Origin: Phycisphaerales bacterium
GTDB taxonomy: Bacteria > Planctomycetota > Phycisphaerae > Tepidisphaerales > Tepidisphaeraceae
DNA length: 64,000 nt
Reading direction: 5' to 3'
NCBI GenBank assembly: GCA_025361735.1
Contig: JANYKD010000125.1
Span: 136 to 64,135, forward strand
The notes under the pieces are model-generated. The model saw nothing but the letters and a program-made list of their open reading frames with translations, ran no database searches and was not told the DNA's origin. Below are positions 20,241-34,412 of this stretch, in pieces; position 1 is the first letter of the stretch; every line of letters starts with the position of its first letter. Position numbers and translations under genes: made by a program.

Positions 20241-23200
20241 TCAAGGCACCTCACCGCTACGGAACCATTTCGTATCCGCGGCCACCTTGTCGGCCAGGTC
20301 CTTGCCTGACAGATACTTCGCCAGCTTTCGGAAATGGCGAACCATCGCCTGCTGGTCGTCCAGTTCGACGTAGGTGATTTCAATCACTTCATAGCCGTGG
20401 CTGCGCAGCCAGGACCGTATCTCCTGATCCCTGGCCGCAGTTGCCGGGTTGCCGTGCAGGGCCGCGCTCATACCGTCGAGGTAGATGCAGACCCCTTTGC
20501 CTTCCGGGTCATCTTCATCGCCAGAAAACCGAACGTCCGGGGTTGTGCTGCCAATCTGGTGGCCGAGGTCAATCTTCTCCTTGAAGCGGATCTGCTGCTG
20601 GAACTGTCCGCTGGTAAAGCCGGCCGCCTCCAGCAGGTGCTTGAGTTTTGTCTCGCCGTCGTTCACCGGCTGCGCGTTCAGGTCATGGTTATGCACAGTC
20701 GGCTGTTGTGCGGGAATCGGATGCAGTTCTGAGATCGCAGCACCGCACTCGTCCAAAATGGTCGCGGCCGCGTGCCGATCCAGATACTGGTGGTAGTAGC
20801 CATTTCTGAAGGTCTGCAAGCAGTCAATGCACGATCGCTCACACGCCGCCGGACAACCCTTCACCAGATCGCCGGCCGCCGCTGTCACCTCAGCAAACCG
20901 ACTGCGAAGCTGGTCCAGTAAACCCGACCCACCGGGCATCGGGTCCCACAGCACGGCATCTACTTCGTCGCGGTCAACGTGGCCGATCACCAGCACCTGC
21001 AAGTCCTCAAGGTGCATATCCAGCACCTGGGTCGCTCCCATCCGAAGGGCTTCCATCAGGCTATAGGCATCTTCACGGCTGGTGCAGCCCTGGAGCATGA
21101 TGCAGTCGGCCACAATATCCGCGAAGAACCCGAGGCGGTCGGGCTTGCGGCCGCAGCGTTCCTCGTGGTTCTCGCCGAAATTTGTCAGTTGCGCCAGCGA
21201 CGCCAATGGCGAAACGCTCTGGCCGCAGACGGAACAGATCGGATAGCCAAGTTCCTGGCTCTGCTCGATAACCGGCGTCGCGCCGACGTTCACCAGCCGC
21301 AGATGCACGCCGCGGCGGAGCAGCAGTTTCCGCGTGCCCCATTTCAGCGCCACGCCGCCGTTGTGCCGGCCCTTTTCTTTGCCGAAGATCGAAACGGGCA
21401 TCTGGAAGCGTGTTTCCTCTTCATCGGAAATCTGGGATTGATGCACCAGATCGACATCGCAGACGGATATCGTGCGGAGCGACAGCGAACCCACGGCCCC
21501 GGCCGCATTGCCAGCGCTCGTCTCTGAAACGGCTTGGCGATCAATGCTCACCTCAAACAGCGGTGTCTCGGCTCGGTCCTCTTCAGCTTCGCGATGAAAT
21601 CGCCGGGCCACAAACCGATGCCCGTTGGCGTAGATCAGGTTTCCAGGCACATACTCGCGCAACGCCAGACTGGTCGGCCGTGGCAACTCAAAATCCATGC
21701 TCCCGAGCTGCCAATACGGCACTTCCGCCATTCCCGTCACACTGCCAGTATCCAGCCCATAGCCGGGCAGGAACCCTTCCACGGCCAGAACGCCGTACGT
21801 GTTGATGTCATCCACGCCTTCCGCTTCCGTGCGCTTCTTGGTTTGCACACCCTTGAGCTTCTTGATGAGCCGGTCGCACCGCCGATAGTGCGCCTCATCC
21901 TCAGCCTCCAAGGTGCCGAACTTGGCGCGCACGGCGTTGAGCCGGGTGATTTCACTATGCGCCCACTGTAGGCGCTTCCGGAGCCGCTTGAGCACGGCAT
22001 CCAGTTCAGTTGCCATCCCATCGACGTGTCGCTCCAGGCTCGCCGTGGCCGTCGCCTCCTGATCGCCGGCCGGCCAGCCCGGCTGAAACACTTCCTGCAC
22101 ATACTTGATCAAGTCCAAGCGGTACTTGCCGACCAGTTGCACGAAGGGGCTCACGTCGAACGGGCCACTGCGAAGATGGCCCGAATCCTCGAACAGGTAA
22201 GACGATATCCGACGAGGGAGCATTTCCTTCAACACGCCGCTGATGGCCTCCGCCTCTACATCGGGCAAGCCCGAGCCTTTGCGGGCAAGCTGAAACAGCC
22301 GGGTGAAGATGGCTGCATGCACATGTTTGGCGACCATCAGGTCGTTGCGAAGATTGAAGGCTGGCGGGTCCACCTTGCCCTCCAGCATTTTCAACGGCTG
22401 GCCGTAGTAGGCCCGATCGTGCGACGCCGTCCGGCAATAGCACAGATCCACCGCCATGCGATGGCGCCGCCCAGCCCGGCCGGCACGCTGCCAGTAGTTT
22501 GCCGGCAGCGGCGGCACATTGCGCATCAGCACCGAATCCAGCGAGCCGATATCCACGCCCAGTTCGAGTGTTGGCGTGCAGACCAGCGTGTTGACCACCT
22601 CGGAAGCGCCCTTGAAGAAGTTCTCAATTCGCTCACGCTGCTCCTGCGGCACCATGGCCGTATGCTCTTCCGGCCGCAGCATCGAGTATCCCTGGTCCAG
22701 CAGTTGCAGGTCATAGTTGTCCAGGTCTTCCGCGATGAACTCCATTTCCCCATCGCACTGCCAGGCCATGCAGAGGTTGTGCGGCGCCCGCCGCGACACC
22801 TTCCGCCGGCAAGTCTTGCAGCGGTAATAGCCGTGGTTCTCGCTCAACCGCACGACGCCCGCGTCAATCTGATAGACCCCGCTGCACTTGGCCAGCGGCT
22901 TGTCCTTGCTGCTCTTGAGCGTCACCGGCACGAGGATTCCCGGAATATCGCTGCGGAGGTAATTCCAGAGAGCGTCGAGGAAACCAGGAATATCCGCATC
23001 GACAACGCCCCATTTCTTGGCGATCTGTCGCACGACCGTGCTCCGCTCGCCCAGCCAGGGCCGCACCAGGTTGCGATCATCGCCTGCATCCACCTTGAGC
23101 TTCATCCCTTGCGGCCCGCCCGGCATCACCGGCAGGTAGCCACGTTGTATTTCGCGGTCGCCATCGTTCCAGTACCGGGTGAATATCTCCCGGTGTGGAT

Positions 23201-34100: not shown

Positions 34101-34412
34101 AGCCCGGACCAGGGCGTCAAAATCGTCGGCCGGCATGGGGTTGTTCCGGGCGGACGGCAACTCGCCCGGCTGCAGGAGCTGCGGCGAAGGTTCAAGTTCC
34201 CAGATCACCTCATCAACTTCGGGACGGGCGTCGTCCTTGTACTCCAGCCGTACGAGGTTCTGCTGCATGCCGTCCTGGCTGCCGAAGGGGCGCACTTCGC
34301 TGATAATGGCCCGCCGATTGCGAACCACCGCCAGCATCCCCACGCGCGGGACAGACGCACCGGAAGCCGAACGTGTAGCTGTGGGCAAGTTGTCCGTCGC
34401 CTGTTTTCCCAT
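31110..34412 (-). CDS. SNF2-family helicase (DrmD-like)
   Basis: '[11 protein letters not shown]', '[10 protein letters not shown]', '[11 protein letters not shown]', '[14 protein letters not shown]' and '[23 protein letters not shown]'. The start is uncertain. I prefer the ATG at 34412 (MGKQATD...). The GTG-initiated extension to 34799 has non-protein-like composition. Confidence 0.8.
   Translation of the reverse strand: [1100 protein letters not shown]

Follow-up and report, generated by a model that had tools for sequence, protein, structure and literature searches.

The closest described relative of the locus considered here is ARMADA, a defence system that Bell et al. named in 2025 (bioRxiv, September 2025, PMC12458937) as the 'missing link' between DISARM and Druantia. 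ARMADA is defined by three proteins: ArmA, an SNF2 helicase of BrxHII/RapA-like type; ArmB, a methyltransferase resembling PglX; and ArmC, a helicase resembling YprA (PMC12458937). According to the same authors, ArmC is most similar to DruE, carries a predicted active C-terminal Vsr-type nuclease, and is set apart as a clade by BrxA-like, Zn beta-barrel, MarR-like and coiled-coil helix-turn-helix (HTH) inserts (PMC12458937). Type II systems have a strict A-B-C-D order, in which ArmD combines a RelE-like domain and a GajB/UvrD-like helicase in one fused protein, while Type I systems are without ArmD and usually have the order C-A-B, with A-B-C in many archaea and cyanobacteria (PMC12458937). 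Here we describe a module encoded on the minus strand at positions 20241-34412 of a 64,000-nucleotide (nt) stretch of DNA, hereafter the window, from a Phycisphaerales bacterium of the family Tepidisphaeraceae (GenBank assembly GCA_025361735.1, contig JANYKD010000125.1, positions 136 to 64,135). The module is very probably an ARMADA Type I anti-phage defence operon comprising armA, armB, a small open reading frame (ORF) and armC, in A-B-C order. Its features, in window coordinates and amino acids (aa), are the following.

31110-34412, minus strand: armA, 1100 aa; SNF2/RapA/BrxHII-like helicase, homologue of DrmD
25909-31113, minus strand: armB, 1734 aa; PglX/DrmMI-like N6-adenine methyltransferase
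25697-25906, minus strand: small ORF between armB and armC, 69 aa; conserved in relatives
20241-25688, minus strand: armC, 1815 aa; YprA-family (DUF1998) helicase-nuclease, the nuclease part being putative
34413-34782, no strand: presumed operon boundary and promoter region; 370-bp gap between the stop codon of an upstream 1184-aa gene and the armA ATG

These ORFs, with their lengths, coordinates and motifs, had been reported in a preliminary description made from the sequence of the window, and all of them were confirmed. A mechanical ORF list extends armA to 1229 aa by starting at a GTG at 34799, and armC to 1832 aa by starting at an ATG at 25739. We consider these longer starts to be wrong because the gene calls on an identical contig (L001) and the N-termini of homologues (MALNPI...) match the shorter ones; for armA, the start at 34412 is supported by both the L001 gene call and the homologue alignment. 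An ATGA overlap joins the end of armA to the start of armB. The ATG of the small ORF lies 2 nt past the armB stop codon, with the sequence AAGGAG 8 nt 5' of it, and 8 nt separate the stop codon of the small ORF from the armC ATG. In the 370-bp gap upstream of armA, a sigma-70 consensus scan returned 4 sites versus 3.2 expected, such that the promoter and terminator scan was at chance level.

The assignment to Type I draws first on ArmC. Two proteins to which Table S1 of the ARMADA paper (PMC12458937) gives the label 'ARMADA Type I helicase' are close homologues of the window ArmC: UNM08185.1 (also MCB1221951.1) shares 61% identity with it across 100% of the query, and MCB2211767.1 shares 62% across 98%. 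Table S1, with about 52,000 YprA homologues, mentions Planctomycetota at least 74 times and includes at least one Tepidisphaeraceae entry (PMC12458937). The neighbours of armC agree with this assignment, as ArmA is an adjacent BrxHII/RapA-like SNF2 helicase and ArmB an adjacent PglX-like methyltransferase with an NPPW motif, the two partners expected in ARMADA Type I. No UvrD or RelE domain, the components of ArmD, was found among the genes downstream of armC in the window. Because there is no ArmD gene 3' of armC, we assign the locus to Type I and not to Type II.

Compared with the published Type I systems, the locus encodes the same three proteins, including a single-chain ArmC with Zn-binding modules, DUF1998 and a predicted C-terminal Vsr-type domain, and it likewise has no ArmD. 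It differs in its gene order, which is A-B-C where the usual published order is C-A-B, and in the conserved 69-aa ORF inserted between armB and armC. The Type II systems of Escherichia coli NCTC 12900 and EDL933 (armABCD; PMC12458937, PMC13463889) have homologous ArmA, ArmB and ArmC proteins, the A-B-C order and a variable armB. By contrast, a fourth gene, armD, is essential in Type II and absent in the window, and Type II ArmC often has an EEP domain and a second Vsr domain, neither of which occurs in the window ArmC. The locus is thus a further member of ARMADA Type I, a system class that has already been published, and not a new DISARM subtype. Of the hybrid DISARM/Druantia architecture suggested in the preliminary description, the intermediate position stands, as in Bell et al. 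(PMC12458937), and the novelty does not.

The linkage of the three genes extends well beyond the window. For ArmC, 2880 homologues were detected, and the best 120 are all full-length and 58-98% identical; named sources among these 120 include Phycisphaeraceae, Pirellulales/Pirellulaceae, Planctomycetales, Hydrogenedentes, Paceibacterota and a Vulcanococcus cyanobacterium. A search of other genomes for the same architecture, as had been proposed at the outset, recovered the A-B-C order at 13 or more separate loci, with representatives in Planctomycetales, Phycisphaeraceae, Tepidisphaeraceae, Pirellulaceae and a cyanobacterium. The identities of ArmA/ArmB/ArmC to the window proteins are given below for five loci.

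L016, an uncultured Tepidisphaeraceae metagenome-assembled genome: 98/83/98%
L008: 76/59/80%
L010: 69/57/73%
L004: 59/51/61%
L006: 58/50/60%

The identities of the three proteins drop in parallel, which indicates that the genes are inherited as a unit and argues against chance adjacency. The upstream neighbours of armA are not conserved: L016 has a ParB_N gene in place of the trio of genes that lies there in the window. A 1251-aa gene that follows armC in L003 was considered as a sign of C-A-B order and rejected, having no similarity to ArmA.

ArmA contains the Pfam domains SNF2-rel_dom and Helicase_C, and the motif LTATPHNG was located in it. It scored 641 bits (E 1e-193) against the PADLOC DrmD model PDLC02621 and 648 bits against the NCBIfam DISARM_DrmD equivalog NF038317, for which the cutoff is 610. 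Other matches were to RapA (161 bits, NCBIfam) and BrxHII (244 bits, PADLOC). These profile matches identify ArmA as a predicted SNF2/RapA-type translocase homologous to DISARM DrmD. In addition, ArmB scored 380 bits against PADLOC DrmMI, with DrmMI models reaching 9e-114. The preliminary description was therefore correct in that the locus shares with class 1 DISARM an SNF2 helicase resembling DrmD and a methyltransferase resembling DrmMI, and the order of SNF2 helicase, methyltransferase and helicase/DUF1998 also parallels that class. From these resemblances it had proposed a non-canonical class 1 DISARM in which DrmA and DrmB are fused and another nuclease replaces DrmC.

We consider this proposal very unlikely. 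DrmD and DrmMI, two of the proteins of class 1 DISARM, both have counterparts here, and both are common to ARMADA by definition. The PADLOC scores of ArmC were 343 bits for DruE1 (E 1e-102), 339 for DruE3, 80 for DpdJ and 55 for DrmA. Among solved structures, ArmC matched DruE and MrfA, and no chain named DrmA was among the matches at E ≤ 0.001. The profile scoring thus places DruE far above DrmA for ArmC, with DrmD and DrmMI as matches of ArmA and ArmB. Further, neither a separate DrmB nor a DrmC gene occurs within 20241-34412, and close ArmC homologues are already classed as ARMADA. The notion of a DrmA-DrmB fusion reverses the polarity, because helicase and OB-CON-DUF1998 in one chain are the default of the YprA family and the split is the exception found in DISARM (PMC12458937). 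Class 1 DISARM and the window locus do have in common the DrmD-like and DrmMI-like proteins, a YprA-family helicase with DUF1998 and, presumably, a restriction-modification-like logic. They differ in that the helicase and DUF1998 of the window form one chain of the Druantia/ARMADA branch, and in that a fused Vsr-type domain, a putative nuclease, takes the place of the PLD protein DrmC. The earlier remark that a different nuclease occupies the position expected for DrmC holds in this form, with D1718, H1745 and other residues of the Vsr-type domain conserved. A 730-aa PLD protein encoded upstream (38334-40526) was examined as a candidate DrmC and rejected. Its DrmC score was 30 bits, the cutoff being 133, and it scored better as ZacB; it also belongs to a three-gene Azaca-like block 370 bp from armA, and this block is absent upstream of armA in L016.

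ArmB matched the Pfam Eco57I methylase (1.6e-20) and, in a weak direct match, the PglX model (7e-5). It carries motif I (DLACGSGSF) followed by motif IV (NGNPPW), on which basis it is predicted to be a gamma-class N6-adenine methyltransferase. A sequence search of ArmB against solved structures returned no relative. The best PADLOC model was REase_MTase_IIG, the Type IIG restriction enzyme-methyltransferase (1307 bits, E=0), and no nuclease domain was found in ArmB by domain scans. A 'PD...DxK' string had suggested an N-terminal PD-(D/E)xK nuclease, which was dropped because the 'PD' is unconserved in 10 homologues. Like Type IIG restriction-modification (R-M) enzymes and BREX PglX, ArmB belongs among the gamma N6-adenine methyltransferases of the Eco57I/PglX-like family, with a putatively swappable variable region. 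It differs from them in that no nuclease domain was found in it, restriction presumably being delegated to ArmC.

The variable region was located by comparing ArmB with its homologues.

26314-26916, minus strand: hypervariable segment of ArmB, residues ~1400-1600; identity drop versus L016 and across 11 ArmB homologues

At the DNA level, the window and L016 are 90-92% identical across armA, most of armB and armC. Over residues 1-1300, the ArmB proteins of the two loci are mostly 94-100% identical, with the lowest 50-residue bins at 74-88%; over residues 1400-1600, they are 26-44% identical. The same drop was seen among the 11 homologues, whose mean pairwise identity was 20-24% in residues 1401-1550 and 38% in residues 1551-1600, as opposed to mostly 45-80% elsewhere. 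In 426 E. coli ARMADA II loci, variation is likewise centred on armB (PMC13463889 / PMC12458937), a parallel that fits a swappable target-recognition region. ArmB residues ~1400-1600 may therefore represent a target-recognition region that is swapped between near-identical systems. Some other relatives look degraded. In L020 (613-5926), the ArmB frame ends at 956 aa, although similarity runs on to residue 1728. In L002/L003 (7683-8060), only a C-terminal ArmB remnant is present, beside transposases, and ArmC is intact.

The Type IIG match of ArmB raises the alternative that the module is made up of two adjacent, independent systems, namely a Type IIG/BREX-like methyltransferase paired with an SNF2 helicase, and a stand-alone helicase-nuclease. 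This would also account for the unrelated defence genes that relatives often hold between armB and armC, and for the persistence of ArmC in L002/L003, where ArmB is reduced to a remnant. However, the A-B-C linkage recurs in the loci described above, which belong to several phyla, and the three proteins diverge in parallel. In the window, moreover, the gaps between genes do not exceed 8 nt, and every gene is needed for defence in E. coli Type II. Overall, the probability that two unconnected systems merely abut here is very small.

The domains of ArmC, the largest protein of the ARMADA operon, are as follows.

24741-25409, minus strand: RecA1/DEAD domain; Pfam DEAD and ResIII, with Walker A TGTGSGKTE at residue 112 and Walker B FDEAHT at residue 268
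23790-24158, minus strand: Zn-binding insert; one CxxC motif at each of residues 511, 585, 599 and 627
22743-22820, minus strand: second pair of Zn-binding motifs; CKTC at residue 957 and CMAWQC at residue 973, cysteines conserved
22464-22664, minus strand: RecA2/Helicase_C core; Pfam Helicase_C 3e-11, with motif VI QRAGRAGRR at residue 1067
20817-21056, minus strand: MZB/DUF1998 zinc domain; Pfam PF09369, 34.2 bits, cutoff 24.2
20244-20681, minus strand: C-terminal Vsr/DUF559-like putative nuclease domain (PD-(D/E)xK superfamily), residues 1670-1815; assigned from a structural model and conserved residues

Pfam thus recognizes DEAD, Helicase_C and MZB (DUF1998) domains in ArmC. The cysteines of the Zn-binding insert are kept in at least 90% of 47 homologues, in which conserved clusters occur at residues 511-630 and 957-978. 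The insert corresponds in position to the beta-barrel Zn-binding module of ARMADA/Druantia helicases (PMC12458937). Of the inserts typical of the ARMADA clade, these cysteine clusters are the feature seen in ArmC. The cysteines of DUF1998 fall within residues 1485-1623, with CSVCGQS at 1485 and CPAACERSCIDCL at ~1611-1623. In an AlphaFold model of the last 293 residues (pLDDT, for predicted local distance difference test, 76), the top Foldseek match was MrfA (6znp; probability 1.00, E 1.3e-3). As this match is to the DUF1998 of MrfA, it confirms the DUF1998 assignment structurally. Some ArmC homologues are longer: about 40 of them, together with P0095 (L006:10001-15928), are ~1975 aa and have an extra C-terminal Peptidase_S24 domain (LexA/phage-repressor-like) after the Vsr-like domain, a named example being that of the cyanobacterium Vulcanococcus.

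The helicase core of ArmC bears on whether the locus is instead a Druantia variant, that is, a DruE helicase with new partner genes. The preliminary description had pointed to a large DruE-like helicase, and the DruE score of 343 bits bears this out, DruE1 and DruE3 being the top PADLOC models. By sequence, the closest solved structures were 9tu7 (171 bits), MrfA/YprA 6znp (100 bits) and 9wae, a helicase of ~1970 aa. Of these, 9TU7 is DruE from Druantia III-A in E. coli EDL933, a 3'-to-5' DNA helicase that binds single-stranded DNA. The DruE models nevertheless aligned to ArmC in a patchy manner, the model coverage being split into 3-5 separate stretches. No match to DruA-D, DruM/F/G or DruH models was found among the neighbouring ORFs, and the conserved partners of ArmC are an SNF2 helicase and a methyltransferase. 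In addition, the ArmC C-terminus has a Vsr-like signature with conserved D and H residues, whereas Druantia III has PLD domains and Druantia I and II have an inactivated Vsr domain (PMC12458937). A Druantia variant is accordingly a highly improbable description of the locus. Druantia Type III (DruH-DruE) remains the source of the closest sequence relative and closest solved structure of ArmC, and its 3'-to-5' single-stranded-DNA-binding DruE is the best available model for how ArmC may act. It differs from the window locus in having DruH, in having PLD nuclease domains in place of a Vsr domain, and in having neither a methyltransferase nor an SNF2 partner.

That the 1815-aa protein is an ordinary DNA-repair helicase of the MrfA/YprA or Lhr type, as the DEAD, Helicase_C and MZB core it has in common with MrfA and its weak NCBIfam matches to DEXH repair helicases might suggest, can be set aside as extremely improbable, since all the NCBIfam repair-helicase scores are far under their cutoffs (e.g., 137 versus 874 bits), ArmC is ~2.4 times the length of MrfA-type proteins (~750 aa) with added Zn-binding inserts and a nuclease-like domain, and its linkage to the SNF2 helicase and methyltransferase, inside a dense defence island, is strict. 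Helicases of the MrfA/YprA repair type occur by themselves or paired with the exonuclease MrfB, in housekeeping surroundings.

The C-terminal domain of ArmC was modelled separately. The AlphaFold model of the last 146 residues (pLDDT 86; predicted TM-score, pTM, 0.81) has an alpha-beta-beta-beta-alpha-beta core. The top Foldseek matches of this model include TnsA (probability 0.75, TM-score 0.47), the Vsr-like protein 3hrl, cap-snatching endonucleases and SSO0001, all of which we take to be of the PD-(D/E)xK-type fold class. In the 293-residue, two-domain model, the nuclease signal was swamped by DUF1998, and 3hrl ranked 23rd. Twelve residues are invariant in the 47 homologues (T1715, P1717, D1718, Y1736, L1737, G1739, S1741, H1745, G1746, D1754, I1757 and R1758), and D1738 is found in at least 90% of them. 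The resulting pattern, PD-hydrophobic ... hydrophobic-x-DG ... H ... D..R ... G-Y-x-V, resembles the Vsr/DUF559 signature. On balance, these observations favour a Vsr-type nuclease, short of significance, and we regard the assignment as likely. Using HHpred, Bell et al. obtained 3.9e-5 versus Vsr for a Type I representative, in which they marked the domain 'active?' (PMC12458937).

In E. coli Type II, defence depends on every gene, on Walker A and Walker B in both ArmA and ArmC, and on NPPW in ArmB (PMC12458937). The system protects directly and without killing the host: infected cells remain intact and metabolically normal (PMC12458937). The catalytic-type motifs of ArmA, ArmB and ArmC are intact in the window. 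We propose that the variable region of ArmB would determine the sequence motif at which this protein marks host DNA, and that ArmA and ArmC would act on unmarked invading DNA. In such a scheme, ArmA could be a double-stranded DNA translocase that helps to find or expose the substrate. ArmC might load on single-stranded or free-end DNA, translocate 3'-to-5' like MrfA and DruE, and cut with its Vsr-type domain.

Several points weigh against the assignment to ARMADA Type I or against this mechanism. The membership of ArmC in Type I is predicted from its high identity to listed members. The functional data on ARMADA all come from E. coli Type II, which has the fourth gene armD, and we infer both the self-marking by ArmB and the role of ArmA. 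With Type IIG restriction enzyme-methyltransferase as its top PADLOC model, ArmB may itself have nuclease activity. For the C-terminal domain of ArmC, none of the Foldseek matches of the 146-residue model was significant (best E = 0.16), and the mobile intron protein 3r3p came up at E=0.063, short of significance, when solved structures were searched with a profile. A Pfam search at E ≤ 10 with 17 C-terminal domains yielded sub-threshold RAP and DUF559 matches amid noise, and none above the cutoff. Of the two C-terminal domains named in the preliminary description, DUF1998 is thus confirmed and the endonuclease is without a significant match.

The extra small gene noted in the preliminary description is supported as a real gene. 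A 66%-identical orthologue lies directly after armB in L011, and 30 residues are invariant across seven close homologues. In a profile search of 1.84 billion representative proteins, the family comprised 264 clusters at E ≤ 1e-3, nearly all of them proteins of 60-120 aa that stand alone. Two members form the C-terminal part of HNH_3 fusion proteins that have a sub-threshold match to RWP-RK (HTH-like). No Pfam, NCBIfam or credible PADLOC match was obtained for the 69-aa ORF itself, and IMG/VR viral contigs contained one weak partial match only. Its near-absence from IMG/VR indicates that it is not a typical phage gene.

The neighbours of the family were surveyed in 46 metagenomic loci (L036-L081). 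On the 5' side, they include ArmB-like/Eco57I/MmeI methyltransferases, Type III Mod, Mrr, FRG, Fic-like and UvrD proteins. On the 3' side, they include Shedu SduA_C, DUF932, Type III Res, SLFN_AlbA_2 and HNH, as well as AAA_30/UvrD_C_2, DUF4062, RAMA and PDDEXK_5. One member sits between an ArmB-like methyltransferase and a Shedu gene, and another (L014:2067-2276) separates the mod and res genes of a Type III R-M system. From these comparisons, we regard the 69-aa ORF as a conserved gene whose family is found where restriction and defence genes adjoin. Its product is a small protein of defence islands, seated in a variable slot, and not a core part of ARMADA.

The slot in question is the armB-armC junction. 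The armA-armB junction is at most 21 nt in 10 of 10 loci; the armB-armC junction spans 67-6556 nt. The contents of the armB-armC gap are listed by locus.

Window: 69-aa ORF alone
L016: small ORF and DUF932
L011: small ORF, AbiEi-like/AbiEii and DUF932
L002: AbiEi/AbiEii, beside the ArmB remnant
L010: Shedu SduA_C
L008: DUF3800
L004: PDDEXK_3
L031: PDDEXK_3 and a MazE/PIN pair (toxin-antitoxin)
L023: SIR2_2
L028: dynamin-like protein (GTPase) and SNF2-like protein
L020: Hsp70-like protein (ATPase)
L006 (cyanobacterium): empty

The armB-armC junction is a variable slot, and we regard the pattern as real in the ~15 loci examined. The junction genes lie on the same strand and are therefore probably co-transcribed. 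A keyword search of the ARMADA paper (PMC12458937) did not find the armB-armC slot described, and neither the 69-aa ORF nor the swapped segment of ArmB turned up in it. We tentatively suggest, as a reading with somewhat less than an even chance, that the 3' end of armB and the armB-armC junction together form a recombination hotspot in A-B-C Type I operons, combining swaps of the putative ArmB specificity segment with defence cargo, and with the small protein often leading the slot. The proteins of the ~70-aa family could serve the embedded defence genes as a portable regulator, or mark the boundaries of their cassettes. If confirmed at scale, the variable slot and its small junction protein would lend weight to a view of defence systems as landing pads for other defence genes.

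The assignment of the locus also has consequences for annotation. The NCBIfam DrmD model fires on ArmA, while PADLOC v2 labels ArmC as DruE and ArmB as Type IIG. As the three proteins trigger DISARM, Druantia and IIG models, pipelines without ARMADA models will mislabel such loci as partial DISARM, Druantia or R-M systems. The sequence-only reading of the preliminary description recovered the ARMADA architecture independently, which supports that approach, the class itself having already been published. As a compact three-gene Planctomycetota locus with an intact nuclease signature, the operon is a reasonable Type I candidate for experiments.

The window as a whole is a dense defence island. 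Neither this island nor the separate trio upstream of armA (34783-41957) featured in the preliminary description. The features flanking the operon are the following.

14576-16369, minus strand: GmrSD/HEC-05, single-gene defence candidate downstream of armC
16366-17373, minus strand: Ser/Thr kinase PD-T4-6, single-gene defence candidate downstream of armC
18746-19510, minus strand: DUF4145/PD-T7-4, single-gene defence candidate downstream of armC
34783-41957, minus strand: Azaca-like / PDC-M27 trio, candidate defence system directly upstream of armA
42236-42925, minus strand: PD-(D/E)XK nuclease gene, near Wadjet
44206-45240, plus strand: HTH-WYL-WCX regulator, preceding Wadjet
45820-53188, plus strand: Wadjet JetABCD, comprising MukF-like, MukE/MksE-like, 1478-aa MukB-like and JetD_C proteins
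3815-5632, plus strand: YqaJ-like exonuclease and RecT recombinase, phage-type recombination pair at the left end of the window
815-2614, plus strand: AAA ATPase, beside the YqaJ/RecT pair

Three further ORFs among the genes downstream of armC (193, 255 and 220 aa) had no domain or defence-model match, and no tRNA gene was found in the window. In the upstream trio, the 472-aa protein has a weak ZacA match, the 730-aa PLD protein matches ZacB (8e-19) and also PDC-M27B, and the 1184-aa SNF2-like helicase matches PDC-M27C (7e-34) and ZacC (3e-25). The trio is separate from the ARMADA operon, to which it is not linked in L016. At the left end of the window, the YqaJ/RecT pair beside the AAA ATPase hints at a remnant of a prophage or mobile element.

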